A stretch of 64,000 bases of DNA from Myxococcota bacterium. GTDB lineage: Bacteria > Myxococcota_A > UBA796 > JAJRTE01. The DNA is taken from NCBI GenBank assembly GCA_024278455.1, contig JAJRTE010000133.1:9658-73657 (forward strand), read 5' to 3'. Position numbers and translations under genes: made by a program. Under the pieces are notes generated by a model that was not told the DNA's origin, did not search any database, and saw nothing but the letters and a program-made list of their open reading frames with translations. Of this stretch, positions 1,067 to 30,584 are shown piece after piece (position 1 is the first letter of the stretch; each line of letters opens with the position of its first letter).

Positions 1067-1069
1067 GGA

Positions 1070-2677
1070 CTATTCCTCTCCTTTCGCCGCGGGTGTCGGG
1101 AACCCGAGCCTGCGCAAGTCACGTATCAACAACTGTTCCTCCGTCGGTGACGCCGGGGGCTCGAACGTCGGTTCCACGGCGGCCGGCGAGACCTCCACCG
1201 GCTCGCCCCGGTCGCCAGCGCCCGGCTCGAACACCGGGGACCGCTCCCCCCCGGGAATCCGGCTTGCTGGCTCCACGGGCACCGCGGCCCGGTTGTCCTC
1301 CCCCACCACGCGTCTCCGCTCAACCACGGGCTCGTCCGGAAACGCCGCGTGAATCAGCCGGTAACGGGCGGCACTGCTCCTCTTCAGCGCATCGACGATG
1401 GGCATCGCCGCACCATTGAGCGAAGGCCGGGCCGCCAGCTTGAGAAACATCTGCACGGTTGCCAGGTCGGCGCGCGTCAACCGATCGACCAGAATGGTCT
1501 CCACGTTGACCAGACGCCGTGTCAGGGCGGCCTCGAGGACCCTGCGCGTCAAGGAAAAGCGGTCCCGGTCAGCCAGGGCGGCCTGTGCGGCCTCCGGGCA
1601 CACGACAAGAGCCGGAAGGGCCGCGTCAGCCCTGGAGGCCGTTTCCAGTTCCAGGCGCTGGATGGCCCTTTCCACCAACACGCACTGGTGATCCGCCAGG
1701 GCGAGCAGACCCTGGCGCAATTCCGGAACCGTGGCCGTCGCAGCTTCGGCCGCGTCGAGAAAGACAGCCGCCACCGAGGACACGGCGCCCGCCGAACGAT
1801 CTCGTATGTGCCTGAGCAAAAAGGCCTTCCGTGGATTCAGCGGCAGCTCGAGAAGGTCGACGGCGGAAGCGAGTTCCAGCCCGTCCAGATCTTCACGGCT
1901 CAAAGCCGCGATGGCCCCGGAGTCCCTGCCAAACACGTCCGAAAGCAAGCCCGCGGCCCTCGAGTCGCCTGCCGGACCCAAGAGCGGGGCAAGGGCGGTC
2001 AGCACCGCGTCTGCATGCGCCGAAACGATCTCCCGCACGCGCTCTCGAAGGGCCTGGGGAGCGTTGAGCAACACGTCGATGCAGGCGTCCCGGGCGCAGA
2101 GCCAGTTGAAATCGGTCTGGATACGTCGCAATCCCGCCTCGTACCCGGGACGGGAGCAGGGGAGATTGACCAGCGCCCGGACGAGCGTGCCTCGACGGGC
2201 GGACTCCCGGGCCAGGTCCTCCCGCTGTTCCCAGGTGGCCGCCACCCCGCACATCTGCTCGGCCGGAGACGCAACGGCCCGGTGGGCCAGTTCCTGGGCG
2301 TTCGGACATTGCCAGTAGAGTACGACCGCCTGCTGAGAGACTGGATCCGCGCCCCGAGACAGGTCGAGATACATCCGGACAGGAGCAGGCAGCCAGTCCG
2401 GGGCGGGACGCGACACGTCGCCGTGACGGCCCAGGTCGACGAGATCCTCGAGCACGGCCCGGCACCGTCCGGGCAGGGGCGACCTGTCCAGGGTGCAACA
2501 CTCGTAGCGCTCATCCAGCCTGAGAAACGCATCCAGTCGAGCTTGCCGCGCCCTGGCACGGTTCAGCAAGACCAGGTAGGCCGCCAAACTCGAAACAGCG
2601 GCCAACACGAGCAGACCGACCACCCACCGTTTCCAGCGCGACGCCGGCGTTCGCTTGCCATTGCCTTGTCTGGTCAT
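1070..2677 (-). CDS. Hypothetical protein with N-terminal transmembrane anchor (VVGLLVLAAVSSLAAYLVLL); no recognisable family
   Basis: 535-aa ORF, codirectional with the downstream SSS gene and separated from it by 4 nt. Hydrophobic N-terminus followed by an Ala/Leu/Arg-rich soluble region. No motif recognised. Confidence 0.35.
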   Translation of the reverse strand: MTRQGNGKRTPASRWKRWVVGLLVLAAVSSLAAYLVLLNRARARQARLDAFLRLDERYECCTLDRSPLPGRCRAVLEDLVDLGRHGDVSRPAPDWLPAPVRMYLDLSRGADPVSQQAVVLYWQCPNAQELAHRAVASPAEQMCGVAATWEQREDLARESARRGTLVRALVNLPCSRPGYEAGLRRIQTDFNWLCARDACIDVLLNAPQALRERVREIVSAHADAVLTALAPLLGPAGDSRAAGLLSDVFGRDSGAIAALSREDLDGLELASAVDLLELPLNPRKAFLLRHIRDRSAGAVSSVAAVFLDAAEAATATVPELRQGLLALADHQCVLVERAIQRLELETASRADAALPALVVCPEAAQAALADRDRFSLTRRVLEAALTRRLVNVETILVDRLTRADLATVQMFLKLAARPSLNGAAMPIVDALKRSSAARYRLIHAAFPDEPVVERRRVVGEDNRAAVPVEPASRIPGGERSPVFEPGAGDRGEPVEVSPAAVEPTFEPPASPTEEQLLIRDLRRLGFPTPAAKGEE

Positions 2678-2731
2678 GGGTCAGCTCCAGGCCGGCTTCC
2701 GGACGGCGACGCCCCCTCCGGGCCCATGCCG

Positions 2732-3370
2732 TCAATACCCCCTGGGGGGAGGGGGAGGAGGAGGAGGCCGCCGGCGGTACCGGCGCGGCGGAGGCGGCAC
2801 CTTGCGCCGAGGAGGAGGGGGCGCCCGGCGAGCGCCCGCGACCGGGAAGTTGCCGAACAACAGGCTCACCGAAACCCCACCGTAGCTCATGGCATAGTAG
2901 GTCGTCCCTGTAGGGAGCACGAGCAGACTGTAGAGCTTGGCGTCGATTGCCGTCCGGCCCAAGTTCCACTGCACCCCGAACTCGGGCCGAAGGTACATGG
3001 CTCCCGCGTTGAAAAACAACGTACCGCCACCATACCCGACACCCAGGCCGGCGAAAATATCCGCATTCGCGATATGCCCGAACACAAAGTCGCCGAAGAA
3101 GCCCCCTCGAATCGTGCCCCCGGTCTGGGACAACATGGCGGCGACATCCATCCCCGTCCGCAGGAATCGCCCGGCGTAGGAAACCCCTTGCCCGCCCAGG
3201 GAAAAATACCCGCTCGAGCTGAACTGCGTGTTCTGGTTGGAGGTCGTCCCGCCTCCCCCCACCACAATCCCTCCCCCGACCTTGGACCGTGCCCAACCTG
3301 CGTCGCTCCACCCGGCGAGCAGCATAACTGCGAGAAAAGCAACAAGAAAGCGCCTGATTCTTCCTGTCAT
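2732..3370 (-). CDS. Secreted Gly-rich protein, possibly outer-membrane beta-barrel-like, with Pro/Arg-rich C-terminal tail
   Basis: Signal-peptide-like N-terminus MTGRIRRFLVAFLAVMLLAGWSDAGWA. Gly/aromatic alternating stretches (FFGDFVFGHIANADIFAGLGVGYGGG). Tail PPPPRRKVPPPPRRYRRRPPPPPPPP. Confidence 0.4.
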   Translation of the reverse strand: MTGRIRRFLVAFLAVMLLAGWSDAGWARSKVGGGIVVGGGGTTSNQNTQFSSSGYFSLGGQGVSYAGRFLRTGMDVAAMLSQTGGTIRGGFFGDFVFGHIANADIFAGLGVGYGGGTLFFNAGAMYLRPEFGVQWNLGRTAIDAKLYSLLVLPTGTTYYAMSYGGVSVSLLFGNFPVAGARRAPPPPRRKVPPPPRRYRRRPPPPPPPPRGY

Positions 3371-3593: not shown

Positions 3594-6197
3594 TCACCAG
3601 TCGCCGCCAGGCCCCCCATAGGCTCCCATGTCCGGAGCGCTTCCGTCAGGATCCCGCCCCACATTCGGGTCCCCGGAATTGGCACAGGGACTGTCTGCCT
3701 GAAGGTGAAAATCCCAGGCGCCCAGGGACGAGGTGTCCTCGGATATGAACAGCGGGTCCGCCGTTTTGTTTCCGTCATTGCCATCGATGGTCGAAGTATC
3801 GATGCCAGCGCCCCGGTACGTCACACCCGACGCCACGAAAACATCGTTGTGGTCGATTGTGAGCGATTCCCGGGTCACGTTGTACACGGCGCTCGAGCTG
3901 TCGCCGCCACGATCCAGGACTATGTTGTTGCGGAACACGACGGTGTCCCCGTCGAAGAGGTAGAGCGCCGTCCCATTACCGCTCTCGGCCATGTTGCCCA
4001 CAAAGGTGTTGTTGACGATATCGAACCGCTCGACGTTCGTTCCGAACCCGGCCGCGTCTATGAGAATGGCGCCTCCCATGAAGGCGGCGTTTTCCACGAA
4101 GATGGAGTTCACAATCGTCGCGGTGCGCTCGAGCCCCAACGCGCCCCCGTCGGAGACCGAACCGCTGCTCGAGTCGTTCCAGGCGAAGACGCAGTGTTCG
4201 ACATAGCTGGGGTTGTGGGCGGCTCCTCCCAGGTTGGTGGAGACATGATTGCTCAAGAACCACGCGCCCCGCAGCTCGAGCAGACTGGCCTCGTCGGCGT
4301 AGGCGCCTCCGCCGTAGTATTCCGCCCTGTTGTTGGAAAAGACGGTGTCGTCAGCTACGAGAACCTGGGTGGCGTCCGCGGAACCGATCGCGGCAAGCCC
4401 GCCGCCGTGGGTTCCGGCATCATTGGCCTCGAAAAGCGTGCGTTCGACCGTGAGCGTGCACCCGGTGCACAGGACCCCGCCACCCAACTGGGCGCTGTTG
4501 TGGTCGATGGTCGTATCCAGGATCTGGACATCGCGGCTGTCGACGAGCGCGATGCCACCCCCGACCCCATCGGCGCCGGAGGCCGTCGAGTAGGCCACTC
4601 GGATTTCCTGGAACGTCACGCTGGTGCTGTTCTCCACGAGCACCGCGGCGCCGGGCCCATCAACGAGGTCGCCGGCACGGATCGTGAGGCCCTGGATGGT
4701 CAATCCCGTGGCGCGGTTCACGTAGATCGTGCGCTGGCCGCCGCTCGACAGGACATCGGTGTCCTCGAACGACCCGGTGGCGCGGAGCACGAAATCCTGA
4801 ACGTCCTGCAGGATGATGTGTCCGGTGTAGCTGCCGGGCAGGACCAGTACGACATCGCAATTCTGGGAGTCGTCGATTGCGTCCTGGATGGATGCCACCG
4901 GGTCATCGAAGGTCCCCTTTCCGTTCCTCGATCCACCGGGGGAGACGGCCATGGGGTGCTTGTTCACGTTGCCATCGTCGCAGTCGCCGCCCTCGGAAAC
5001 GTACCCTTCCGGCAGGGAACAGGCTTCGACCCTCCCGCTCGAATCTCCGAAGCCGTCGCCATCCCCGTCGGGGTAGTAGGATGACGTCAGCCCCTGGTCC
5101 GGGGTTCCATCGCAGTCGTCGTCCACGCCGTTGCACGTTTCCTGTGCGCCCGGATAGACGTCCGCGGCGCCATCGTCGCAGTCGCCGGTGACGGTGGCAA
5201 AAGAACAGCCTTCTCCGGCAGGAGCACTGCATGCATACGTAGGCTCCGCGTCGCTGGCAGCGAATCCATCGCAATCGCCGTCGGGATAGAAGAGACTCTG
5301 AACGCCCTCATCGACCTGGGCATCGCAGTCCTGGTCGACCCCGTCGCACACTTCCACACCGCCGGGATGGATGGTGGGGTCGCTGTCGTCGCAATCACCG
5401 TTGTCGAGGACGTAGGAGCCGGCGGGTGCCTGGCAGTCCGTGACGGCCCCCGCGGAATCGCCGTAACGATCGCCGTCCTCGTCCGGGTAGAAGGTCTGCT
5501 CGGTCACATCTTCGTCGATCTCTCCGTCGCAGTCGTTGTCCTTGCTGTCACAGGACTCGAGCGCTCCGGAATAGGTGAGCGGATCGGCATCGTCGCAGTC
5601 ATCCCCGGTTGCGGAAGCCCCCGCCGGAAGGCGACAATCCTCGACGACGTTGGTCGGGTCCCCGTGCCCATCCCCGTCTGCGTCAGCGTAGAACACGTTC
5701 GTGGGGAGGCCATCGTCGGCGGTGCCGTTGCAATCGTTGTCGGCGCCGTCGCACAACTCCGTGGCGCCGGGATAGATGGCGGGGTCGCCGTCGTCGCAGT
5801 CCTCCCCGGCGAGGAAGCCGTCGCCATCACGGTCCTGGAGAGGGGCGAGGGTGGGTGTCATCGCCGGCGGGGTCTCGGTCGCGGCCGCGGTGTCGTCATC
5901 CCCGGGCGATGTGTCATCGTCACCGGTGGTGCCGTCGTCGTCCTCGACAGATGTGTCATCGTCACCGGTGGTGACGTCGTCGTCCCCGACGGATGTGTCA
6001 TCGTCGCCGCTGGTGAGGTCATCGTCGCCCGGTGACTGGTCGTCATCGGCCATCGGGGAGCCTGCGGGAAGATCGCTATCCAGGACTGGAACGCAGGTGT
6101 TCACGCCAAGGCACAGCACCAGGAGGAGGAGGAAGTGGGCGATATCGAGCGCAAACCGGTTCCGCATTGCATGTCCTGCCGTTTTCTCGCCTGCCAT
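3594..6197 (-). CDS. Secreted MopE-like Cys-rich metal-binding-repeat protein with acidic DDDTS repeats and C-terminal right-handed beta-helix domain
   Basis: Hydrophobic N-terminus (FLLLLVLCLGVNTC). Repeats GDDDLTSGDDDTSVGDDD. At least 6 copies of DCDDxDPxxxPGAxExCDGxDNDCDGxxDE. C-terminal NxxGGG / parallel beta-helix-like repeats (GGGIALVD, GGGVLC, GGGLAA). Confidence 0.6.
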   Translation of the reverse strand: MAGEKTAGHAMRNRFALDIAHFLLLLVLCLGVNTCVPVLDSDLPAGSPMADDDQSPGDDDLTSGDDDTSVGDDDVTTGDDDTSVEDDDGTTGDDDTSPGDDDTAAATETPPAMTPTLAPLQDRDGDGFLAGEDCDDGDPAIYPGATELCDGADNDCNGTADDGLPTNVFYADADGDGHGDPTNVVEDCRLPAGASATGDDCDDADPLTYSGALESCDSKDNDCDGEIDEDVTEQTFYPDEDGDRYGDSAGAVTDCQAPAGSYVLDNGDCDDSDPTIHPGGVEVCDGVDQDCDAQVDEGVQSLFYPDGDCDGFAASDAEPTYACSAPAGEGCSFATVTGDCDDGAADVYPGAQETCNGVDDDCDGTPDQGLTSSYYPDGDGDGFGDSSGRVEACSLPEGYVSEGGDCDDGNVNKHPMAVSPGGSRNGKGTFDDPVASIQDAIDDSQNCDVVLVLPGSYTGHIILQDVQDFVLRATGSFEDTDVLSSGGQRTIYVNRATGLTIQGLTIRAGDLVDGPGAAVLVENSTSVTFQEIRVAYSTASGADGVGGGIALVDSRDVQILDTTIDHNSAQLGGGVLCTGCTLTVERTLFEANDAGTHGGGLAAIGSADATQVLVADDTVFSNNRAEYYGGGAYADEASLLELRGAWFLSNHVSTNLGGAAHNPSYVEHCVFAWNDSSSGSVSDGGALGLERTATIVNSIFVENAAFMGGAILIDAAGFGTNVERFDIVNNTFVGNMAESGNGTALYLFDGDTVVFRNNIVLDRGGDSSSAVYNVTRESLTIDHNDVFVASGVTYRGAGIDTSTIDGNDGNKTADPLFISEDTSSLGAWDFHLQADSPCANSGDPNVGRDPDGSAPDMGAYGGPGGDW

Positions 6198-14681: not shown

Positions 14682-15965
14682 CTACTGCTCTCCCTTGTCG
14701 ATCACGAAACGCGCGTTGTGGATTTCCATGGTGGACGTGAAGTTCTCCCCTTCCGACGTGAAAGAATCGCTCACGTACCAGACCTCATAGCGATCCGTGC
14801 TTTCCTCCGCACTGTAGTAGACCCAGTCCAGGTCGGAACTGTCGGCATCTTCATCGTTGTCGAGGGTGCCCGTGACGGTGATCATGCCCGCGGCGACAGT
14901 CATCTCCGCCCACACCACGTCGGTGCCGTCCGTGCCCGTGCCCCTCGAGAAGCACATCTTCAGCTCTCGAGTGTCGGTCTCGCCTTCCCACGCGCCGATG
15001 AAGTAGGTGGGCTCGAAATAGAGACAGTTTGCCGGCCAGCCATCCGGGATACCGAGGCCCGGCGCATGGCCGCCGCCCAGCAGCGTCTGCTCGAACACGT
15101 CGGTCTGAGGATTGCCGCCGAAGGTGTAGTCGCTGACAAGGACCTCGATCTCACCCCCCACGACCATGTCGTAGCCGGCGCAGCCGTTGTTGAGCGTCTC
15201 GAGACCGGCGGCATTGTCGCCCCAGTCGTCGGCGGTGTCCACCAACCCGTCGCAATCGTCGTCGTACCCGTTGCAGATCTCGGCGGCTCCCGGATTGATG
15301 GACCACATCTTGTCGTCGCAGTCGTCGTCCGTAGCCGCGTAGCCTTCGGGGATCGTGCAGTACGTCTTGGTGTCGGCGTCGGTGCCGTAGCCGTCGCCAT
15401 CCTCGTCGAGGTAGTAGGTCGCGGTGGTCAGCTCTTCGTCCACGCTCCCGTCGCAGTCGTTGTCCTTGCCATCGCAAAGCTCCGGCACACCGGGACGCAC
15501 GGCCGAGTCTTCGTCATCGCAATCGTCGCCACCCGCATCCACCGCATCGTGGCCGTCCCCGTCCACGTCCACGAGATCGCTCCCATCGCAGTCCTGGTCG
15601 ATCCCGTCGTAGGGCGTCTCGGGCGCGCCTGGATAGACGGTCGGATCGTCGTCATCGCAATCGCTATCGGCCGGATGGCCGTCGGCGTCGGCATCGTTTC
15701 CTGCCACGGGGGTCGGCGTGGTCTCGGGGGCGGCGGTCGGCGTGACATCGGGCGCGGCGGTCGGCGTGGCCATGGACATCGGCGTCGGGGTCACAGCCGG
15801 GGGTTCGGTGGGCGCCGGCGTGCTGTTGTCAGGCCGCGCCGTGGGGGTGGCTTCCGGAGTCGGCGACGGGGTTTCCTCACCGCCCCCTTCTCCGCAGCCC
15901 GGAGCGCTGATGAACAGGACGGCGCCGGCCGCCAAAGTGAACAGGGAATAGCGTAGAGTCATCAT
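14682..15965 (-). CDS. MopE-like Cys-rich metal-binding-repeat lipoprotein
   Basis: Lipobox FISAPGCGEG. Pro/Thr/Ala linker. Repeats CDDDDPTVYPGAPE..DQDCDG and CDDEDSAVRPGVPELCDGKDNDCDGSVDE. C-terminal domain of unknown fold. Confidence 0.55.
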   Translation of the reverse strand: MMTLRYSLFTLAAGAVLFISAPGCGEGGGEETPSPTPEATPTARPDNSTPAPTEPPAVTPTPMSMATPTAAPDVTPTAAPETTPTPVAGNDADADGHPADSDCDDDDPTVYPGAPETPYDGIDQDCDGSDLVDVDGDGHDAVDAGGDDCDDEDSAVRPGVPELCDGKDNDCDGSVDEELTTATYYLDEDGDGYGTDADTKTYCTIPEGYAATDDDCDDKMWSINPGAAEICNGYDDDCDGLVDTADDWGDNAAGLETLNNGCAGYDMVVGGEIEVLVSDYTFGGNPQTDVFEQTLLGGGHAPGLGIPDGWPANCLYFEPTYFIGAWEGETDTRELKMCFSRGTGTDGTDVVWAEMTVAAGMITVTGTLDNDEDADSSDLDWVYYSAEESTDRYEVWYVSDSFTSEGENFTSTMEIHNARFVIDKGEQ

Positions 15966-16337
15966 GGGGAACTCCTCTCGAAAACTGACGTGAATCGACT
16001 ACGACACAACAAGTACGCACGTGAAACCCGGCCGCGGCTTGGCAACCCGGGTGCCACGTTGGTGTGGCCGGAAGATGGCGTCTCCACGGGGCGACCGGAT
16101 GATTCGAGCGTACCAGCACGGGCGTAGTCAGCACAACTATCTGCGGGACTGCATGATGGTGAGACAGCAACCTGGCAAAGAATCTGGCTTGATACGCTCA
16201 ATCGTGGGTATCAAAGGTAAAATCATGGTGCCTGGTCTGTCAATCCCTGCAAGATACGCGGGGGTGCAATTCCGGCAATGCCGGAATTCTGGTCTCAGGC
16301 TCCCCCGACATGGAAACGGTCCTGCGGCAAGACGAGA

Positions 16338-16392
16338 CGGGACGGAAGAAAGTAGGAACCCCGCTAAAACCCTTGAAGATCCCAGCGAGTCC
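16338..16392. repeat. Direct repeat copy 1 (~55-60 nt, hairpin-forming) of the element also found at 17122-17179
   Basis: gacggaagaaagtaggaaccccgctaaaacccttgaagatcccagcgagtcc versus gacggaagaaagcaagaaacccgctgaaacccttgaagattccagcgggtttgcc (~85% identity). Copy 1 is followed by a T-run (ccctttttcg). Confidence 0.6.
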
Positions 16393-16568
16393 CTTTTTCG
16401 ATGCGCATCGCAGGAAGCCAAGAGTGCTCGCACGGTCAGCATTCCATGTCGGATTGAGAATTCGATGTGGGGCGAGAGGATCGTTCTTGGAGGCAACTAC
16501 ACAGGTATCTGTGCCGGGCCTTGACCGGCCATCAGGAAGAGTCGGTCCGCGTGGTGACGGAATCGGTC

Positions 16569-16670
16569 TTAGCCGGCGTAACGGTGAAAGTACAGATCGA
16601 GGGCTTCATCACCAGACTTGAAACTCTGGCGGTCGTCGTTGTTCCGAAGGACTCGAATCTCAACGGTCAT
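16569..16670 (-). pseudogene. Truncated GNAT-family toxin (TacT-like) remnant, only ~33 codons
   Basis: MTVEIRVLRNNDDRQSFKSGDEALDLYFHRYAG* resembles the N-terminus of TacT-type acetyltransferase toxins (HDRSQFDCGNEALNxWL). It overlaps the 3' end of the upstream antitoxin by 11 nt. A stop follows after 33 aa and no GNAT core is present. Confidence 0.4.
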
Positions 16671-16926
16671 TGAACAACCGCTGCATGGCCTCGGTTGGTG
16701 CGGGAGGGTGAAAGGTGAGATCACGCACCCGCTCGGCGCTCTCTCTCGAGAGCACGACCCGGACCGGAACAATGATGTCCTGTGGGATCTCATCCAGCGC
16801 CTGCAGGTGGTGCAGTAGTGCCTGTTCCACCAGGTGCGCTCGAGTCACACCGGTCGCACGCACATGGCGCCCCATGCGTGCCTTGGTTTCCTCGGAAACA
16901 ACGGCGGAAATCTCTGTTCTTGCCAC
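16660..16926 (-). CDS. DUF1778/TacA-like ribbon-helix-helix antitoxin
   Basis: 88 aa. Terminal IVPVRVVLSRESAERVRDLTFHPPAPTEAMQRLF matches the TacA C-terminal pattern (VLSxRDxExFLxALxNPPxPNEALxRA). Confidence 0.55.
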   Translation of the reverse strand: MARTEISAVVSEETKARMGRHVRATGVTRAHLVEQALLHHLQALDEIPQDIIVPVRVVLSRESAERVRDLTFHPPAPTEAMQRLFNDR

Positions 16927-17121
16927 AGGAACCTCCCTTGCTCGGACCAGGTTCTACAATATCCTAGAACCTACCAAACACACTGTCGAGGACAAGAGAA
17001 GCAAGCCTTCCAGCGAACGACGACTGCCGTAAAGGACTATCGAGCGGGGTCATGTCCGGGCCGCGATACGCTGTAGCCTTCGGTGCCAATCGGGGTACGG
17101 GGACGACTCGAACTGGAGGCG

Positions 17122-17179
17122 GGGACGGAAGAAAGCAAGAAACCCGCTGAAACCCTTGAAGATTCCAGCGGGTTTGCCC
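17122..17179. repeat. Direct repeat copy 2; on the minus strand forms a 10-bp hairpin (AAACCCGCUG...CAGCGGGUUU) followed by a U-rich tract, terminator-like just downstream of tRNA-Ala
   Basis: aaacccgctg aaacccttgaagattc cagcgggttt is a perfect inverted repeat. The reverse-strand downstream sequence is CUUGCUUUCUUCC. Confidence 0.55.
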
Positions 17180-17191
17180 AAGGACGCGATG

Positions 17192-17267
17192 TGGTGGAGC
17201 TAAGGAGGATCGAACTCCTGACCTCATGACTGCCAGTCATGCGCTCTCCCAGCTGAGCTATAGCCCC
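17192..17267 (-). tRNA. tRNA-Ala (anticodon GGC), CCA encoded
   Basis: Reverse complement GGGGCTATAGCTCAGCTGGGAGAGCGCATGACTGGCAGTCATGAGGTCAGGAGTTCGATCCTCCTTAGCTCCACCA. 7-bp acceptor stem with G3:U70 Ala identity pair. D-loop AGCTCAGCTGGGAGAGC. Anticodon loop CTGGCAG. T-loop GGTTCGATCC-like. Confidence 0.9.
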
Positions 17268-17810
17268 GCACCGCTCGAGAACGCTTGATCGTCTCAGAAT
17301 GTGTATGTAGCCCCATCGAACGCTTTCGTCAACCCTTTATTGCGAGAAAGCGGCAGAGTGGCACGTTCCCCCCCTCTACAATCCGCCGAGTTCCTCCTCG
17401 AGCGCCTGGATACGGTCATCGAGTTCCTGGAGAACTTCGAACGGCCGCTGGAACCCCGGCAGCCTGGGGATGGCGCCGTCCTGGAGCTGCGCGTATGCCT
17501 CCCTCCCCAATCGCTCGAACACCTGCCTCCGGTCCTTCTCGAGGCTTCTCAGCTCCAGCCGGAGCTTGCCCATGCTCGCCTGCTGGGCCACGATTTCTCG
17601 ACCTTTCGCCAGGATCTGCTTGAATTCCCCCATGGCTGCTCCCCTCAGTTACGGCCTTCGACGCCTGGCAGCGCGAGAAGAGGCTTCCAGTTTGCCTCGA
17701 TCCAGCGAACGCACAGTGCTTCAACCGTTTATACTCCTCGATCGGCGGGGCGTCAACCTCGAGGCGTCCCCTTTTTGGTTGAAGCCGACGTGCCCCTTTG
17801 CTATGAATGC

Positions 17811-21049: not shown

Positions 21050-22579
21050 TCACCTTTCGATCGTGTCTCCGGGCGTGAGGTCCCGGCCCGCGAGGCCTGG
21101 GTAGTCCGGGGAATAGCGTCTCGCCTTGAACACCGCGTTCATCATCTGCCCCTGGGCCGTACCCTCTGGCGCTTCGGGGACTTCCTGCCCCTGGGCGAGA
21201 GGTCCGGTATCGATCACCGGGTTTACGTACTTCCACACCATGTCGCTGTCCTCGGTCACCTCGAACAGGATGCCTGCCGGGCCCTGGCACACCAGGGTGT
21301 CGCCGTTGGGCTGGCGCTGCGCCCCGGAGATGTTTGCCGCGTAGAAATCCTCCGGCGGGTCGGCGACATAACGCCATACCGGCGCCTCCGGGCCATAGGC
21401 CGTACCCGGCGTGTAGGCGTAGGTGCCGTCCTCCTGGATCGGCGGCACGATCTCGTCGACGGTGGAGTATTCCCCATCGGGCCGGTCCGCACCGTTGTTG
21501 AACACGAGGATGTGTCCGGCGCCAGGAAGACCTTCGGAGATCCACTGTGCGTCATGCTGGTAGAAAAGTTGCTGGTCCGAGGCGTCGCCGGCCCGGTACG
21601 TCCGCGGGTTGCCCCAGCGATAGAGAAGGTCGCCGCCACGGCCGTATCTTCCCCCCTCGTGCCCCCTGGCCTGTTCCACGGTGGTGGAATGATCGATGAT
21701 CCAGAATTCGCTGAACACGCGCGAGCTGATGATGATCTGGTCGAGTTCCGGGTTGTAGTCGATCCCGTTGCAATGGTTCCAGTCCTCGGCACCCCCGTGA
21801 AGCGTGTAGTTGATGTCTATCAACTCCGGATGGTCTCCGACCACGCCATAGTTGTCCTTGGTCTCGTCGTAATCCTGGACCAGGTGGTCCCACACGTGCC
21901 AGTGCCACACGACCTGGCCCCCGTCCTCCCCCTGAGGGGCAATCTCGATCACGTGGTCCGGCCACAGCCCCGAGTTCGTGACCAGGTCGGGCCGGCGGCC
22001 GGCGGCGAGCGCCTCTTCCTGGGTCTTGTATTCCCACACCAGGGCCAGGACGTTGCCGTTGGGCATGGGCGCCACATCGTGGTGGGAAAAGAACATGTCG
22101 CTAGAAATAGTGAACTCCCAGTTCATGGTACCGTCCCAGTCGAACCGCTCGATACGGCCGGCAGAACCGCCGCCGTGGAAACGAGGGTTCACGCCGTCGC
22201 CCACGTAGGCCGGTCTGAGGAGTTCACCGGTCTCGAGGAGATAGGCCGACTGACCCGGAGTGAAGTTGCTGGCCCATGAACGAATGATCCTTCCGTCGTT
22301 GTCGATCAAGTAGGTTTCGGTGTACCGAAGCGGCGGAAACAGGGTATAGCCCTCGTATGCGCCACCTTCGTTGAGCAGCACCCCGATGGTGTTCTGTTCG
22401 GACACTGGCGTTGCTGTCGCCCCGATTGCAGCCGGGGTGGGCGTGGCGGTACCGGGTGATGTGGCGTCGTCATCGCCGGGTACCGTGGCGTCGTCATCGT
22501 CGCCTTCGTCGCCGCAATCGGCGGCGACGGCCAGGCAGGCGACGAGCACCAGGGGGAGGGTCTTGGGCCAGTCTTTCAC
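21050..22579 (-). CDS. Arylsulfotransferase (ASST) family-like lipoprotein
   Basis: GTG start after GGAGG. Lipobox LVLVACLAVAADCGDEG plus acidic linker. FFSHHDVAPMPNGNVLAL, FWIIDHS and beta-propeller-like repeats typical of the ASST family. Confidence 0.55.
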   Translation of the reverse strand: MKDWPKTLPLVLVACLAVAADCGDEGDDDDATVPGDDDATSPGTATPTPAAIGATATPVSEQNTIGVLLNEGGAYEGYTLFPPLRYTETYLIDNDGRIIRSWASNFTPGQSAYLLETGELLRPAYVGDGVNPRFHGGGSAGRIERFDWDGTMNWEFTISSDMFFSHHDVAPMPNGNVLALVWEYKTQEEALAAGRRPDLVTNSGLWPDHVIEIAPQGEDGGQVVWHWHVWDHLVQDYDETKDNYGVVGDHPELIDINYTLHGGAEDWNHCNGIDYNPELDQIIISSRVFSEFWIIDHSTTVEQARGHEGGRYGRGGDLLYRWGNPRTYRAGDASDQQLFYQHDAQWISEGLPGAGHILVFNNGADRPDGEYSTVDEIVPPIQEDGTYAYTPGTAYGPEAPVWRYVADPPEDFYAANISGAQRQPNGDTLVCQGPAGILFEVTEDSDMVWKYVNPVIDTGPLAQGQEVPEAPEGTAQGQMMNAVFKARRYSPDYPGLAGRDLTPGDTIER

Positions 22580-24470: not shown

Positions 24471-27400
24471 CTACTTGTTGCGCATGGCTTCCAGCTTGGC
24501 GCTCAACTCCGGCGACGTGGCGTGGATGGCGGCGCTCATCGTGTACCGCAACTCCTCCATCTCCCGCGCGATGTTGGCGAGCTGCGCCGCGGAATCCGTC
24601 GGGGAGACAGCACGCTCGAGCGCAACCACGGCCCGGTCCAGCCGCTCCGTGATACGATCCAGCCGGCTCACGAACGCTGGCCCGATACCGTCCCCCAGCC
24701 CCTTCCGGATGCCATAGGCCTGGTGCGCCAGCGCCACGAGTGGCCTGTACAAGAGCTTGGGAGCTTCCTCGCGAATCTGCTTCACCTCCATGGCAAGGCT
24801 CTCCAGCCGCCCGCCGAGTTCCTGGGCGGACCCATCAGCGGCCAGTTGCCGCCGGAGCGCATCGATCTGCTCTCCCACGTGGCGAACCTGTACCGCAAGC
24901 ACCCTGTCCACCGCCTCGACGGTGGCCGCGCTCGACCCCTCGATCTGCTGCGCCAACGCCTTGAGCGGCCCGCTCAGATCCTGGTCGACCGACGCGCGGA
25001 TCTCCTTGCCCGCCCTGGCCAACTGCTCCACGAGCGCGGCGAGCGGCCGTGCCAGGTCTTGGGCCAACGACGCCTGGACCCCTTCCCTGGACTGGGCCAG
25101 TTGCTGCTCGATGCCTGCCAGCGACTGCGACACCTCGCCCGATACGGCACGCGCCATCCCCTCCCGCGCAAGGTGCACCTGCTCGACCAGTGCCCCGAGC
25201 GTCTGCCCAAGGTGCTCCGATACGCCCGATTGCACGTCGGACCGGGCCGCCTCGACCTGCCCGACCAGGGCCGCGAGAGGGGCTCCAAGACCATCCGCCA
25301 ACGCGGATTCCAGTCCCCCCTGCGCTCGAGATACCCGCTCCACCAGGGCGGCCAGGGGCGCGTGAATCGCCTCGTTCACCGAAGCCTCGAGGCCGGCATG
25401 GGTCCTGCCCAGCTCCTCGACAAGCTGGTCCAACCTCGCCGCCAGGGTGTCCACCACCGACGCACCAGTGTCGCCGACGCCCGAGACTACCCGCTCCCCC
25501 AGTGCAGCGAGCGGCATGCCGACCTCGGCATGGACGGCCTTGGACCAGTCGGCCGACGCCGCCTCTAGCTGCTCGGCCAGCGCGCTCAACGGCCCGCGCA
25601 CGTCCTCGCTCACCGCCGCCTTCACGCCCGCACGGGCCGCCTCTAGCTGCTCGGCCAGCGCGCTCAACGGCCCGCGCACGTCCTCGCTCACCGCCGCCTT
25701 CACACCCGCACGGGCCGCTTCTAGCTGCTCGACGAGAGAGGTGAGAGGCTTGTGGAGATCGTTGGCGATCGATGCGTCGATGCCCTGACCCACCTCACCA
25801 ATCTGGTGGACGAGAGCGTCGACGCGGGCGACGAGTTCGTGGCGCACCGGGTCGTCGATGCTGGATCTTACGTCTCTCACCTCCTGGACCAGTGCACCAA
25901 GGGGTGAAAGGAGCCGGGTGACGGGGTCATCCTCCTTGCCACCCATCATCTGGAGCCGGCCGTAGGATTTCTTGATCTCGTTCCACCTTTCGGCCTGGGT
26001 CTGGGTGAGTGTTCCGCGGAGTTCGGCGAACTTGAGGAGGTTCTGTTCGGCGCCGGAGGTGAGCGTCTGTGCCTCGCCGACGTAGTGATCCTCGATCACG
26101 GCCTCCAGTTCCTCGTCGTTCATGACCGGAACGATCTTTTCGGCGATCTTGTTCATGTTCCGGTAGCTTCCCTGGAGCTTGAACGGTGGCTCGGTACGGT
26201 ACTCCTCGGCCTGGGAAGCGCTGGCGATGTACTGGCGATTGACCTCGAGGACGGTCTTCTGCACAACGAAGAGCTTTTGCAAGACCGAGAGGATCTCGTC
26301 CAGTTCAGCCTGGGTGTAGTCGTGGGCCAGGTCGGTCCTGGCGATCTCCCGTCCTCGCGCCATGTCTATCAGGAGGTAGATGTCCTTGGGGTCGCGTGAG
26401 GCCAGCGGGGCGAGCACGGGGTTGGAGGTAAGAGCGTTCTCGACGTAGCTCAGCTCGAACACGGCCTCCTTGCCCTGGAGGATGTCGCCGAGGTTGTAGG
26501 TATCGGCCCGGTTGGCCAGCATGTCGGGGATCTGGAACTTTTCGCCCGACTCGGTGTAGGGATTGCCGGCCATGACCACGCAAAAACGCTTACCCCGGAG
26601 ATCGTGGGTGCGCGTTCTCCCCCGCCAGACGCCCTCGATCTTGCGCTGGGCGTCGCACAGCGAAATGAACTTCTGGAGGAACTCTGGATTGGTATGCTGG
26701 ATGTCATCGACATAGAGCATCACGTTGTTGCCCATCTCCAGCGCGAGATTGAGCTTTTCGACTTCCTGCCGTGCAGTCGCGTTGGGCGCCTCGCCCGGGT
26801 CGATGGAGGTGACCGCGTGCCCCATGGCGGGACCGTTTATCTTCATGAAGATGAGGCCAAGGCGGTTGGCGACGTACTCCATCAGGGTGGTCTTGCCATA
26901 CCCCGGGGGAGAGATGAGCAGGAGCATGCCCATCAGGTCGGTACGCTTGCCTGCGCCGAGCGCGCCCATCTGCTTGGCCAGGTTGTCGCCGATGAGCGGG
27001 AGGTAGACCTCGTCGATGAGCCGGTTGCGCACGAACGAGGTGAGGACTCGGGGCCGGAACTCGTCGAGACGAAGGGCGGTCCTCTCCCGCTCGATGATCC
27101 GCTGCCGGAGCTTCCTGTAGGCACGAAAACGAGGTACGACCTCCTGGACGTAGTCTCCCAGGCGCGTAAGGAACTCGTCGAGCCGCAAGGTCATGCGCCC
27201 CTTGCGTATGCGGCCGTGCTGGCCGAGCAGCCCCGTGACGACCGTGGTCCCGGCCGCGTTCGAGGGGGCACGCTCGATGCGGGTGTCGGTGAGCAGCCAG
27301 GCGGCGGTCTCGGGTGCGGCAGGAGCCAGGGCGCGCGTCTCCTCGTCCTCGGCGGCCTCGAGAACGGCGTCGATCCACGCGATGGCCAGATGGTAGCGCC

Positions 27401-30400
27401 CGGCCAAGTCCTCTTCCAGCGCCTGCAGGTCGGCAAGCACGGCTTCCCGGTGCCCGTGGCGGTCGAGCTGCTGGAGCAACCGGTCCTTGAGCTTGACGGC
27501 TTCGTCGGCGAGCGCGAACCGGGGTTTGGGCGCGGCCAGTTCCTCTGCCAGGTAGTTCCCGGTCCGTTCGGCATCCGCCTCCCCGACCGCCAGCCCCTGC
27601 TTCCGGAGGAATCCGGCCGCCTGGGTCCCAAGGTCGTGGGCGAACCGGGCGAACTCCGGGGAGTGTTCGAAAGCGTCACGAAGGCGCCCGAGGTTGCGCG
27701 CCTTGAGCACGAGGCGGGACCTGGCCTTGTCGTCGTCGAACGCGGCCCAGAAGAGCGCCGCGAACGCCCGTGCTCGAGGCGGGTACTTGAGCAGCCCGGC
27801 GTCGGCGCGCATGGCGAGCAAGGCCTCGAGAATGATGGCGGCGTCGGCGTCGTGGACGCCCCGTTCATATCCCTCGTCGTAGCGTGACTCTGCATACTTC
27901 CTGACAAGGTTCAGCAACCCGTCATCCTGGCCGGTGGCGGCGCGGAGTGCGGTGAACGAGAGGTCGTTGGCGCGACTCTCGGCGTCGAAGAGAATCGATG
28001 CGGCGAGGAACTCGCCTCGATAGACCTGGTCATTCTCGGACACGAGCGCCTGGTCCCAGAAGGGACGGGTCGCCTCGAGTTCCGGGTCCTCGATGGGGTC
28101 GTAGAAGTCGGTGCCGGTGAGATGGATCATCATGCGTCCATCTCGAGGCATCAGGGTCAGATCCATGGGCTCGGTGTTGACCGTGAATCGGTGTCTTCCG
28201 AGCCTGATGGCATTATCCTCGTCGAAGAGGTAGGCACGGTCCCGCTGTGCTCGAGCGGCTTCCTGGGTGGAAGACTTGAGCTTGCCGAGGAGTTCGTCGG
28301 CCTTGACGCCTTCCCCCATCTCGCGCAGGTCGGACGCGATGTCGCGGACCTTGGCGACCATGGGGTCGGAGACGAAGAATGTGTTGAGTTCTTCGGATGT
28401 CTTGAACGCCGATGCCCGGCGGACTATCCCCTCGAGGATGCGGTCCGCGGCCTTGAGCATGTTGTGGGAACGGCGCTGCCGTTCCTCGAGGAGGCCCTGC
28501 TTGCGGGTCTCGAAAGCCTCGTAGACTTCGGCGCGCTTGGCGGCCAGGTCGTCGAGGAACTGGTCGAACTCGCCGAAACGGGTCTCGAGCTGTTCCAGTT
28601 GTACGGTAAGGCGGGAGAGCTGTTCGTCGCACTTCTCCGGCGTGTCGCAGGCGGCCAGGCTGTTGGCGACGCTCTGGCCGAACAGCTTGAACTCGACGCC
28701 GAACTGGGCAACCCCTTCTGCGCCCAGCAGCTCCTTGTAGGTGCCGTCGACGTGGGCCTTGGTGCGGTTGAGCTGGGCGTAGACCTCGGAGACGCGCTCG
28801 AGGATCCGGGTGCGAACGGTCGGGTCGTCGACCTTGAGCCCGCTGATGATCTCGGTGAGAACGTCGAACCCTGTCCCGATTCTCTCGACGGCCTCCTTGA
28901 GAGGGAGGAGGTCGGCCGTCTTCTCGATGCCTTCCACCTGTTCGTGGATGGCGGCGATCTCGTGCTTGTACGGGTCGAGGGAGTCGTCCCCCAGGAGGAA
29001 CTCGACGGTTGCCTTGCTGAGTGCCTCGAACTGTTCCCGAGCCTCGGTCTCGAGCCGGTCTATCTCGGCTACGTCGATGTAGCGCAGCTCCCTGAGAGAG
29101 AAGAGGAGGCCCATCTGGCGGCGCCAGGCGGTGAGGGTGTCGACATACTGCCTGGCCTCGCTCCACCCGCTGGGGCTGGAATCCCTGCGCAGCTCCGTCT
29201 GTGCCCTTTCTGCTTCGAGCAGGGCCTGCCGGGAGCGCTCGCGGATCGCAAGGACCTTCTCGAACTCGTCGATGATCTTCTCAGCGGTGGAGAGGGCAGC
29301 CTTGAGGGTGCCCAGCATGTCCCCGACTTCCTCGGCGCCGAGCCAGTAGTAGGTGTCGATGGTGCGATGGATGGCAGCGATGAGGTCTTCATAGACCTGG
29401 ACCGTCGGCTGCTGATTCTCGATCATGCGGACGACGGTATTGACGTCGGAGATCCCCCTGACCAGTTCGGGGTTGCCCACCTTGCCGAGGAACGAGGTGT
29501 CCTGGGGCGCCTTGGCAGCGAACTCGTCGCTCTCGAACGGGGTCTGCCACACCTGCATGGGGTGCACACGGGTAGGCTCGGCGGAATCGTAGCGGAAGAC
29601 GATCATCCTCCCGTCCTCGAATATGCTGTATCCGTGGACGGATATGGGATTCTGCACCTCCTTGCGGATCAGGTTGTACGGGAGGAGGATCGAGAGTCCA
29701 TCCTTCGATTCGTAGAAGGTATAGAGGACATCCTCCCCGTTGGGGGAACGCACCACTGACTCGAACTTGAGGTTCTCCGCCTCGGTGGCGAAGATCCGGG
29801 TCTCGCCGGTATTGAGGTAGTACCCGCCCGGAAAGATGATCCCGTGGTCGCCCGGGAGCTGAATGCACGCGAGACCGATGGCGTCGATGCGCTTGACGTC
29901 CTGGGTGCGGGTGTTGAACACGAAATAGCGATAGGCGTCCTCCCGGTAGGGGCGCACCTTGAGGAGGATCAGGACGCCGACCTCGGCATACTGTATGTCG
30001 GCGTCATCCAGGGACTGGTGGAGGTCTTCCACGGGCTCGGCATAGATGCCTTCCCCGGTCTCGGTGCTGTCCTCCACCTTGATGGTCAGGTCTCCACCGG
30101 TGGTCTCCACGAAGACCTTGTCGAGGATCGAGACATGGGGAAAGCGCCCGAGGACGTGGTCTTCGCGGGTCGCTTGCGTCCACTCGAAATCGTGGGGAGG
30201 AGGGAAGCGATAGTCGCGCTCGCCCCGGTTGTCGATGTACTTGACGCTGCCATCGGGCTCGACGGCCCACCGCAGGACCTTCACGTCACGTTCCGAGTCC
30301 CCGGTCTTGAACACCGCGAGCATTTGCAGTTCGTTGCGGAGCAGGTGGACGAGTTCGGCGTCCTTGTAGTACCGATAGAGTTCGCCGAAGTCCCGAACGA

Positions 30401-30584
30401 ACTCGGGATCATGGAGGAAGTCGTTCTCGTCCTGGGGGATGCGCTCCAACTCGGGGCCGTTCTCGGTATCCACGAGACGATGGAGGCTGAACACGTCCTC
30501 CACGTCGGTCTGGCGCTTGAGCCCCAGGAACACGTTGTAGCCGAACAGCAGCCTGTCGCCGAGGGGCACGATGTCTCGAGGCAC
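24471..30584 (-). CDS. Giant (~2037 aa) multidomain protein: ~1150-aa N-terminal region of unknown fold, central MoxR/dynein-type AAA+ ATPase domain, C-terminal ~600-aa coiled-coil region of ~26-aa tandem repeats
   Basis: Walker A LLLISPPGYGKTT. Walker B VMLYVDDIQH. MoxR-like sensor region FCVVMAGNPYTESGEKFQIPDMLANRADTYNL. C-terminal repeats PLSALAEQLEAARAGVKAAVSEDVRG ×~12, including a perfect 78-nt tandem duplication at 25561-25716. Start is GTG at 30582-30584, 3 codons after an in-frame TAG. Confidence 0.75.
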   Translation of the reverse strand: MPRDIVPLGDRLLFGYNVFLGLKRQTDVEDVFSLHRLVDTENGPELERIPQDENDFLHDPEFVRDFGELYRYYKDAELVHLLRNELQMLAVFKTGDSERDVKVLRWAVEPDGSVKYIDNRGERDYRFPPPHDFEWTQATREDHVLGRFPHVSILDKVFVETTGGDLTIKVEDSTETGEGIYAEPVEDLHQSLDDADIQYAEVGVLILLKVRPYREDAYRYFVFNTRTQDVKRIDAIGLACIQLPGDHGIIFPGGYYLNTGETRIFATEAENLKFESVVRSPNGEDVLYTFYESKDGLSILLPYNLIRKEVQNPISVHGYSIFEDGRMIVFRYDSAEPTRVHPMQVWQTPFESDEFAAKAPQDTSFLGKVGNPELVRGISDVNTVVRMIENQQPTVQVYEDLIAAIHRTIDTYYWLGAEEVGDMLGTLKAALSTAEKIIDEFEKVLAIRERSRQALLEAERAQTELRRDSSPSGWSEARQYVDTLTAWRRQMGLLFSLRELRYIDVAEIDRLETEAREQFEALSKATVEFLLGDDSLDPYKHEIAAIHEQVEGIEKTADLLPLKEAVERIGTGFDVLTEIISGLKVDDPTVRTRILERVSEVYAQLNRTKAHVDGTYKELLGAEGVAQFGVEFKLFGQSVANSLAACDTPEKCDEQLSRLTVQLEQLETRFGEFDQFLDDLAAKRAEVYEAFETRKQGLLEERQRRSHNMLKAADRILEGIVRRASAFKTSEELNTFFVSDPMVAKVRDIASDLREMGEGVKADELLGKLKSSTQEAARAQRDRAYLFDEDNAIRLGRHRFTVNTEPMDLTLMPRDGRMMIHLTGTDFYDPIEDPELEATRPFWDQALVSENDQVYRGEFLAASILFDAESRANDLSFTALRAATGQDDGLLNLVRKYAESRYDEGYERGVHDADAAIILEALLAMRADAGLLKYPPRARAFAALFWAAFDDDKARSRLVLKARNLGRLRDAFEHSPEFARFAHDLGTQAAGFLRKQGLAVGEADAERTGNYLAEELAAPKPRFALADEAVKLKDRLLQQLDRHGHREAVLADLQALEEDLAGRYHLAIAWIDAVLEAAEDEETRALAPAAPETAAWLLTDTRIERAPSNAAGTTVVTGLLGQHGRIRKGRMTLRLDEFLTRLGDYVQEVVPRFRAYRKLRQRIIERERTALRLDEFRPRVLTSFVRNRLIDEVYLPLIGDNLAKQMGALGAGKRTDLMGMLLLISPPGYGKTTLMEYVANRLGLIFMKINGPAMGHAVTSIDPGEAPNATARQEVEKLNLALEMGNNVMLYVDDIQHTNPEFLQKFISLCDAQRKIEGVWRGRTRTHDLRGKRFCVVMAGNPYTESGEKFQIPDMLANRADTYNLGDILQGKEAVFELSYVENALTSNPVLAPLASRDPKDIYLLIDMARGREIARTDLAHDYTQAELDEILSVLQKLFVVQKTVLEVNRQYIASASQAEEYRTEPPFKLQGSYRNMNKIAEKIVPVMNDEELEAVIEDHYVGEAQTLTSGAEQNLLKFAELRGTLTQTQAERWNEIKKSYGRLQMMGGKEDDPVTRLLSPLGALVQEVRDVRSSIDDPVRHELVARVDALVHQIGEVGQGIDASIANDLHKPLTSLVEQLEAARAGVKAAVSEDVRGPLSALAEQLEAARAGVKAAVSEDVRGPLSALAEQLEAASADWSKAVHAEVGMPLAALGERVVSGVGDTGASVVDTLAARLDQLVEELGRTHAGLEASVNEAIHAPLAALVERVSRAQGGLESALADGLGAPLAALVGQVEAARSDVQSGVSEHLGQTLGALVEQVHLAREGMARAVSGEVSQSLAGIEQQLAQSREGVQASLAQDLARPLAALVEQLARAGKEIRASVDQDLSGPLKALAQQIEGSSAATVEAVDRVLAVQVRHVGEQIDALRRQLAADGSAQELGGRLESLAMEVKQIREEAPKLLYRPLVALAHQAYGIRKGLGDGIGPAFVSRLDRITERLDRAVVALERAVSPTDSAAQLANIAREMEELRYTMSAAIHATSPELSAKLEAMRNK
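25561..25716. repeat. Perfect 78-nt tandem duplication (2 full units plus a partial third) inside the giant ATPase coiled-coil region
   Basis: gcctctagctgctcggccagcgcgctcaacggcccgcgcacgtcctcgctcaccgccgccttcac(g/a)cccgcacgggcc repeated head-to-tail. It encodes the identical 26-aa unit twice. Confidence 0.8.

Follow-up and report, generated by a model that had tools for sequence, protein, structure and literature searches.

A decayed GNAT toxin-antitoxin cassette between two copies of a terminator-like hairpin beside tRNA-Ala in a Myxococcota bacterium

The described toxin-antitoxin systems closest to the locus reported here are TacA-TacT (Salmonella), AtaR-AtaT (E. coli O157) and KacA-KacT (Klebsiella), in which a ribbon-helix-helix (RHH) antitoxin gene precedes and overlaps the gene of a toxin, a Gcn5-related N-acetyltransferase (GNAT), as it does in the family treated below. 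Toxins of the TacT/AtaT/KacT type acetylate aminoacyl-tRNAs (PMC9177977, PMC6698736). Our locus lies in a 64,000-nt stretch from a Myxococcota bacterium (assembly GCA_024278455.1, contig JAJRTE010000133.1, positions 9,658 to 73,657 of the forward strand), which we call the window and number from its first letter. Just downstream of tRNA-Ala(GGC), 731 bp are bracketed by two copies of a 52-nt direct repeat. This structure is confirmed: beside the tRNA stand a repeat pair, an antitoxin gene that is intact and a toxin gene that is dead. We consider it moderately probable that a horizontally acquired GNAT/RHH type II cassette inserted at the tRNA-Ala(GGC) terminator, duplicating the 52-nt unit, and that its toxin then decayed. 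The features, in the direction of transcription, are as follows.

17192-17267, minus strand: tRNA-Ala(GGC) gene, 76 nt (ARAGORN; Rfam RF00005, 64.8 bits; identical in the relative, locus L007)
17122-17173, minus strand: tRNA-proximal repeat copy, 52 nt, read as the native intrinsic terminator of tRNA-Ala (repeat search, terminator scan, folding, the relative's locus)
16990-17121, minus strand: spacer between the proximal repeat and the promoter region, GC 0.58 (blastn, no match in the window or in other loci)
16948-16989, minus strand: promoter-like site TCGACA-17-TAGGAT with an overlapping palindrome, then a GGGAGG Shine-Dalgarno sequence (promoter scan; sequence reading)
16660-16926, minus strand: antitoxin gene, 88 aa, GTG start, intact, now an orphan (homologues; RHH_1; profile match to the AtaR/KacA C terminus)
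16551-16670, minus strand: GNAT toxin pseudogene remnant, codons 1-40 (tblastn with intact partners; hidden Markov model (HMM) of 59 toxins)
16391-16550, minus strand: 160-nt stretch from the toxin breakpoint to the distal repeat (no significant match)
16339-16390, minus strand: distal repeat copy, 52 nt, read as a diverged duplicate of the tRNA terminator (repeat search, folding)

Likeness to the known GNAT/RHH systems extends beyond operon layout. The solved TacT, AtaT and KacT chains are matched by the partner toxins of the window's antitoxin family, the antitoxins combine a predicted N-terminal RHH with a C-terminal segment that can be aligned with the toxin-binding part of AtaR and KacA, and a palindromic operator overlaps the promoter. 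Unlike TacAT, AtaRT and KacAT, the window copy has no functional toxin, and its antitoxin falls below PF08681, in a divergent and mostly environmental sub-family. Decay that strikes the toxin first is familiar for chromosomal modules (Mine et al. 2009 as cited in PMC3184786; PMC7192599; PMC10790755). The decayed modules of Mine et al., as PMC3184786 cites them, share with our locus a dead toxin, an intact antitoxin open reading frame (ORF) and a plastic intergenic site; our toxin is a GNAT rather than CcdB, and the site is a tRNA terminator with a 52-nt duplication around the insert.

The repeat pair is the only direct-repeat family between 15900 and 17500. Its copies start 783 nt apart and are 46/52 identical (88%), with five of the six differences being transitions and the longest exact runs common to both reaching 14 nt. 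A degenerate 49-mer pattern has exactly two sites in the 64 kb (0 expected, 100 shuffles). Semi-global alignments found no similarity in the flanks on either side (p = 0.36-0.93), and because both flanks are unrelated the 52-nt unit is sharply bounded, comprising exactly the hairpin plus its tail.

Both copies can fold. The proximal hairpin begins 16 nt past the tRNA and pairs over 16 bp (17140-17175, minus strand) around a UCAA loop, followed by the T-rich tail CUUGCUUUCUUCC. A consensus terminator scan flags it as terminator-like (16 pairs, 7 of them G-C, 4-nt loop, tail CTTGCTTTCT), and as RNA it folds with -26.0 kcal/mol (z = -4.5 against shuffles); a stable GC-containing hairpin with a U-tract is what a predicted intrinsic terminator comprises. 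The arrangement is that of Rho-independent tRNA terminators, a GC-containing 16-bp hairpin and U-rich tail directly 3' of the tRNA at a position conserved in a relative, but an ordinary tRNA terminator does not have a second, diverged copy 783 nt downstream, after an inserted operon. That distal copy folds with -21.5 kcal/mol (z = -1.7) and is not flagged by the scan. Three of its four stem differences convert Watson-Crick pairs to G-U on the transcribed strand and the fourth breaks a pair; since the changes are mostly of the former kind, the distal hairpin has been retained, though it is no longer exceptional. It may serve as a putative terminator of the antitoxin transcript. Fifty nucleotides beyond the distal repeat, at 16266-16286, we observed a perfect palindrome with 10-bp arms, AATTCCGGCA-A-TGCCGGAATT (-15.6 kcal/mol, z = -3.1), which has no T-tract after it and lies in a relatively AT-rich region upstream of a MopE-like gene; it could be a binding site for a regulator or an insulator hairpin.

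Searches for further copies of the hairpin in the 64-kb window gave none beyond the two (pattern with 3 mismatches; blastn; covariance model with filters off). The covariance model, built from three hairpins (the two window copies and that of the relative), also found 0 in ~90 loci of the antitoxin family, and the exact 23-mer pattern GGRATCTTCAAGGGTTTYAGCGG has 0 occurrences in 596 Gb of species-representative genomes plus JGI metagenomes, collections that apparently do not contain the source genome. As far as this can be tested on the window, the ~90 family loci and the public scans, the hairpin does not appear to be of the repetitive extragenic palindrome (REP) or MITE (miniature inverted-repeat transposable element) kind.

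A relative has a tRNA-Ala locus with no cassette, within the limits of a distant comparator from one sampled lineage (loci L007, L008 and L011). Among 5.8 billion proteins, no more than two homologues (55% and 47% identity) of the M16 peptidase encoded two genes away from the tRNA reach E<=1e-30; a scan of 185,579 species genomes with an M16 peptidase alignment returned the same single lineage, and looking up the proteins of the window by exact match gave no record. At the amino acid level the relative's adjacent M16 peptidase is only 55-57% identical to that of the window, yet on the right of the tRNA both have the following genes in one order: an 85-aa coiled-coil protein, two M16 peptidases, an arylsulfotransferase and a patatin. 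After the identical tRNA the relative carries, in the corresponding place, one hairpin whose arms and tail are related to those in the window (CCGCTGGGATC...CAGCGG plus TTTCTCTTGCC; -27.4 kcal/mol). Neither a toxin-antitoxin module nor a second hairpin is present at its tRNA-Ala locus (L007/L008/L011), the hairpin being single-copy in 13.7 kb. The next gene past it is bipA, which is not in the window, and synteny between the two breaks exactly at the tRNA terminator. Where the differences between the repeat copies can be compared with the relative, the proximal copy agrees at 3/4, weak evidence given the distance. By position and sequence together, the proximal hairpin is evidently the native tRNA-Ala terminator and orthologous to the relative's. 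Because the model finds one hairpin per relative locus and none in the ~90 family loci, the hairpin is a feature of the tRNA-Ala locus rather than of the cassette.

An earlier note on this DNA, made from the letters alone, had placed tRNA-Ala(GGC) at 17192-17267 on the minus strand, as ARAGORN and Rfam (64.8 bits) now confirm, and had seen two terminator-like repeat copies around the module, which hold up as 52-nt units, 88% identical and 783 nt apart. It had also entertained the repeat as a mobile terminator-like element. That idea is not supported: the copy count by BLASTN that the note proposed gives two, within the 64-kb window, there are none in the ~90 family loci or the public scans, and the relative's terminator is the orthologue of the proximal copy. 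A comparison of the tRNA-Ala locus between related genomes, likewise proposed there, succeeded in part, yielding a distant relative with one hairpin and no module, but with a different gene order on the bipA side.

Judged by its coding sequence, the toxin is dead twice over, by a nonsense codon (CAA-to-TAA) and by loss of everything after codon ~40. Its ATG at 16670 gives an 11-nt overlap with the antitoxin gene (stop at 16660-16662), so that the bicistronic, overlapping antitoxin-then-toxin layout is preserved in the window. At codon 34 (16569-16571) a TAA stands in place of the conserved Gln34 of YAGQNQFRHH, leaving 33 sense codons. Homology reads through this stop to codon ~40 (~16551), with 28/40 residues identical to the toxin of locus L001 (tblastn, E = 7e-17); at the DNA level it ends at ~16550 in comparison with L001-L006, and an HMM of 59 intact toxins matches only over positions 3-43. 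The acetyl-CoA-binding core, ~130 codons, has been deleted, and a complete GNAT fold is no longer encoded. Because these ~130 codons are lost besides the stop, the death of the toxin is not a base-calling error.

The toxin HMM has no match in the 160 nt that separate the breakpoint from the distal repeat. We considered a remnant of the toxin C terminus in 16391-16550, to which several toxins gave weak matches (for example IEFSIRHGMLTVRALLASCDA against VDFYGRYGFIPVEALEGQSDA), and rejected it as unproven (best tblastn 21.2 bits, p = 0.07, 400 dinucleotide shuffles); a tRNA 3'-end remnant at 16462-16483 was also rejected, its score of 18 not being significant against a null of 15.1 +/- 1.9. The stretch could be the far end of the original insert. 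GC content at third codon positions (GC3) is 0.66 in the antitoxin gene and 0.63 in the toxin remnant, compared with 0.77-0.83 in neighbouring genes.

The antitoxin has >428 homologues of 88-89 aa, the best of which are 75-78% identical over the full length. The window protein reaches RHH_1 below threshold (17 bits, cut-off 20.5 bits, E = 0.006), RHH_1 is matched by 35/42 family members (best 5e-9), and the family profile also matches the RHH proteins CopG and Rv0298. Against Pfam DUF1778/TacA1 (PF08681) the window antitoxin gives no match at E<=1; 18/42 family members match it weakly (best 3.7e-4), the window protein not among them. The family profile aligns with AtaR (E = 3e-4) and KacA (E = 0.011) over the C-terminal 30-35 residues only, which are the toxin-binding segment. 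On these profile scores the family is a remote relative of DUF1778 and not a member by the curated threshold, and NCBIfam has no specific family name for it. The predicted architecture is an N-terminal ribbon-helix-helix followed by a C-terminal GNAT-neutralising segment, and the protein is predicted to work like TacA or AtaR.

The gene departs from 2/25 conserved columns (>=85% conserved, 112 homologues). Relaxed selection on the antitoxin was considered and rejected, since 29/112 homologues deviate as much and the window protein is no outlier. At codon 5 (16912-16914) we observed Glu, found only here; 109/112 sequences have Gln at this predicted DNA-facing position of the RHH beta-strand.

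Upstream, the promoter-like TCGACA-17-TAGGAT at 16989..16961 is overlapped by the palindrome AGGTTCTA-N8-TAGAACCT, within which lies TCTA(G/C)G-ATAT-TGTAGA, the operator-like motif of the family; the GTG start is preceded by a Shine-Dalgarno sequence, GGGAGG, read from the letters. Homologous antitoxin genes (L001, L005, L014, L023, L024 and L047) have TCTAC-N-GTAGA palindromes 20-50 nt ahead of them, and the window's TCTAGG-ATAT-TGTAGA nearly matches the TCTACG-ATAT-TGTAGA of L023. Given this conservation of the motif across the family, the promoter and operator evidently arrived with the cassette.

The earlier note's central claim, a decayed GNAT/RHH module with its toxin inactivated and its antitoxin kept as an orphan, is upheld by homologue loci, toxin alignments and HMMs. 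Of its description of the antitoxin as DUF1778/TacA-like and RHH, the second half is matched by 35/42 of the family, the protein itself scoring sub-threshold, but the first half is not upheld, where homology is remote and there is no match at E<=1. Its count of ~33 toxin codons before a stop agrees with the TAA at codon 34, but the gene was not simply cut there: homology runs to codon ~40, after which ~130 codons are missing. The missing GNAT core, which the note had suggested seeking elsewhere, was not found in the 64-kb window.

What the intact module looks like can be seen in the antitoxin's relatives. Each of the 12 loci retrieved by exact protein has, directly after the antitoxin gene, an intact gene for an Acetyltransf_1 protein of 169-177 aa, and in most of these loci the two overlap by 11 nt; the window's overlap is that of L001-L006, L014-L020 and L024. 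From metagenomes we took 80 loci, 66 of which could be assessed for a gene after the antitoxin; an ORF >=150 aa follows in 59/66, and one more (146 aa) aligns with most of the toxin. The intact partner toxin of L001 matches the solved TacT/AtaT/KacT structures with E = 5e-13 to 1e-7. The family occurs in many unrelated genomic contexts, its sub-family being mostly environmental. Only one record among 72,556 plasmid records contains the sub-family and none was found in phage records or viral contigs, so a phage or plasmid origin of the cassette is not borne out.

Truncated GNAT toxins beside an intact antitoxin recur in independent assemblies: L084 (929-1290, ~33 codons), L086 (~38-74) and L072/L073 (96 codons). 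In L084 an unrelated opposite-strand gene follows the toxin stump. By the sequences of these loci, toxin-first decay is a recurrent outcome within the antitoxin family. Flanking direct repeats are absent from the 12 exact-protein loci and from 46/48 assessable metagenome loci; the two exceptions, L053 and L037, have repeats that are longer than, and unrelated to, those of the window. L053 is a low-GC contig in which an RHH-GNAT pair and a second small two-gene module lie inside 131-nt direct repeats (730-3370; 91% identical, 1855 nt apart), with a further 78-nt repeat pair, 97% identical, nearby; it resembles an integron-like cassette array. On two contigs of an unrelated metagenomic lineage (L047 2725-3264 and L048 372-911) the family cassette follows tRNA-Glu(CTC) at a distance of ~200 nt and is oriented like it, which is also the layout of the window; both contigs break off within the toxin, short of any downstream repeat position.

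How the cassette reached its place beside tRNA-Ala we infer from these comparisons. A foreign origin is suggested by the lower GC3, by the many unrelated contexts of the family and by the synteny break at the terminator. The insertion event itself would have duplicated the terminator, leaving attL/attR-like direct repeats, possibly when the chromosomal hairpin recombined, in Campbell-type or site-specific fashion, with a similar one carried by a circular donor, or alternatively by fill-in of a staggered break spanning the hairpin. The cassette and other donor cargo would later have shrunk by deletion, and deletion plus the nonsense mutation would have killed the toxin. Today the proximal hairpin would terminate the tRNA, while the antitoxin would be made from its own promoter and repress it via the TCTAGG-ATAT-TGTAGA palindrome, its transcript ending at the weakened distal hairpin or close to it, upstream of the promoter region of the MopE-like gene. 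No toxin activity would be possible. The orphan antitoxin may be neutral debris on its way to decay, or it may provide cheap immunity ('anti-addiction') against incoming related GNAT toxins.

The general picture is that of tRNA-linked islets and integrative elements: foreign DNA directly downstream of a tRNA, direct repeats of ~50 nt and a synteny break at the tRNA. A length of ~50 nt is typical of att identity segments, as in pSAM2 at 58 bp. Here, a 52-nt repeat bounds 731 bp of lower GC3 beside a tRNA gene. Our locus departs from those elements in that the tRNA 3' end is not part of the repeat, there is no integrase, and the insert measures only 731 bp. The integration scar at the tRNA proposed by the earlier note is accordingly plausible but unproven, favoured by a relative with a single hairpin and no module and by the lower GC3, and weakened by a repeat lacking the tRNA 3' end, by the missing integrase and by the distance of the one relative sampled.

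Several observations weigh against insertion at the terminator. Classical integration at a tRNA site duplicates the tRNA 3' end, but the repeat starts ~18 nt past it (17173 against 17192) and excludes the 3' part of the tRNA, and the 20-45 nt on the tRNA side of the repeats are dissimilar (p = 0.38-0.88). Pfam searches of the DNA inside the repeat pair and of the main ORFs between 3.4 and 24.4 kb found no integrase or transposase. The copies diverge by 12%, which is large for a recent duplication; the duplication must therefore be old, or the differences were inherited from attP and attB. The sole comparator, at 55% aa identity, is distant and has a different gene order on the cassette's side of the tRNA; its single hairpin may represent the ancestral state, but it is not a true empty site. 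Since other family loci lack flanking repeats, no general mechanism that moves the cassette is evident. Expression of the antitoxin is a prediction, and the Q5E change on the predicted DNA-contacting strand could mean that the orphan antitoxin binds its operator differently or has lost binding.

Some of these points also fit another history. The terminator may already have been duplicated, as tandem hairpins or by an independent local duplication, and the cassette may have landed between the copies by illegitimate recombination, in which case the repeats are unrelated to the insertion. The 12% divergence suggests age, there is no integrase, other family loci do without flanking repeats, and both copies still fold on the transcribed strand. 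We nevertheless regard this history as rather unlikely, as the only relative has a single hairpin and the 731 nt between the copies are all cassette-related or unassignable, which would require the insert to fall exactly between adjacent hairpins. Improbable, too, is a bolder proposal in which an uncharacterised mechanism, integrase-independent or trans-acting, uses the tRNA-Ala terminator hairpin as its attachment site and the antitoxin, with its Q5E change, is kept as immunity against incoming GNAT toxins. Small self-promoted toxin-antitoxin cassettes would then enter just on the 3' side of tRNA genes, with duplication of the entire 52-nt terminator, so that tRNA and newcomer are both terminated; the cassettes of L047 and L048 likewise lie downstream of a tRNA gene, that of tRNA-Glu.

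The repeat could instead be the mobile party. A dispersed REP/MITE-like or mobile terminator-like element, with one copy after the tRNA and another landed past the module, bracketing the module by coincidence or mediating a rearrangement, would account for a discrete, palindromic unit whose two ends are both sharp, and at plastic intergenic sites REP-like units often come in pairs (PMC3184786). We give this little credence, however, given two copies in 64 kb, 0 in the public genome and metagenome scans (in which the source genome is apparently not included) and a proximal copy that is orthologous to a terminator held singly in 13.7 kb of the relative. The hairpins might also be attC sites of a small integrase-less cluster (CALIN) holding an integron-type gene cassette. 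Self-promoted toxin-antitoxin cassettes are typical cargo of chromosomal integrons, and the metagenomic homologue in L053 does form part of an array of several modules whose direct repeats measure 131 and 78 nt. Yet the R'' RYYYAAC and R' GTTRRRY core sites are not found in the sequence (candidates GGCAAAC and GTTTCTT, distal GTTCCTA), the near-perfect 16-bp stem with its 4-nt loop contrasts with the imperfect, bulged attC fold, one 'attC' would be the tRNA's own conserved terminator, and no tyrosine recombinase is nearby, all of which makes an integron very improbable. An artefact, whether a chance repeat, a chimeric metagenome-assembled genome or a sequencing error that made the stop, is hardly credible: the contig is metagenome-assembled and a single C-to-T does yield TAA, but the repeat appeared in 0/100 shuffles, shared runs of at most 14 nt are too short to mis-join contigs, a ~130-codon loss is no base-call error, and similar truncated toxins occur in independent assemblies. 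What probability remains belongs to scenarios outside those set out here.

The surroundings offer some further observations. tRNA-Ala(GGC) is the sole tRNA gene in the 64-kb window (ARAGORN, Rfam), and Rfam has no match there other than the tRNA. Upstream of it, at 17304-17332 on the minus strand, TTGACG-17 nt-TACATA was read by eye, the consensus scan being silent; it is conserved in L007 (~5450-5480) and is probably the tRNA promoter. The arylsulfotransferase gene (21056-22393, minus strand) has 84% protein identity to that of L007, compared with only 48-67% for adjacent syntenic genes, which suggests unusually strong conservation or recent exchange. Two minus-strand genes (14682-15965 and 3594-6197) encode secreted or lipoprotein-like proteins with repeated Cu-binding_MopE motifs (E = 1.7e-30 and 1.4e-38), the protein of 3594-6197 having a beta-helix domain besides. 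A 2037-aa ORF occupies 24471-30584 on the minus strand.

Taken for what it is, the locus is ordinary genomic debris, mildly unusual only in that a whole terminator stands cleanly duplicated around an insert of 731 bp that holds no recombinase. It adds one more example of how chromosomal toxin-antitoxin modules usually fare: a plastic, tRNA-linked site takes them in, the toxin is the first part to go, and the antitoxin lingers for a while. The DUF1778 model is commonly used to find GNAT toxin-antitoxin pairs; because it misses this antitoxin sub-family (88-89 aa, >400 members, TacT-like GNAT partners), surveys that use it under-count such pairs. The 52-nt terminator duplication, for its part, is a concrete and checkable trace of how mini-cassettes may enter chromosomes without a visible recombinase.

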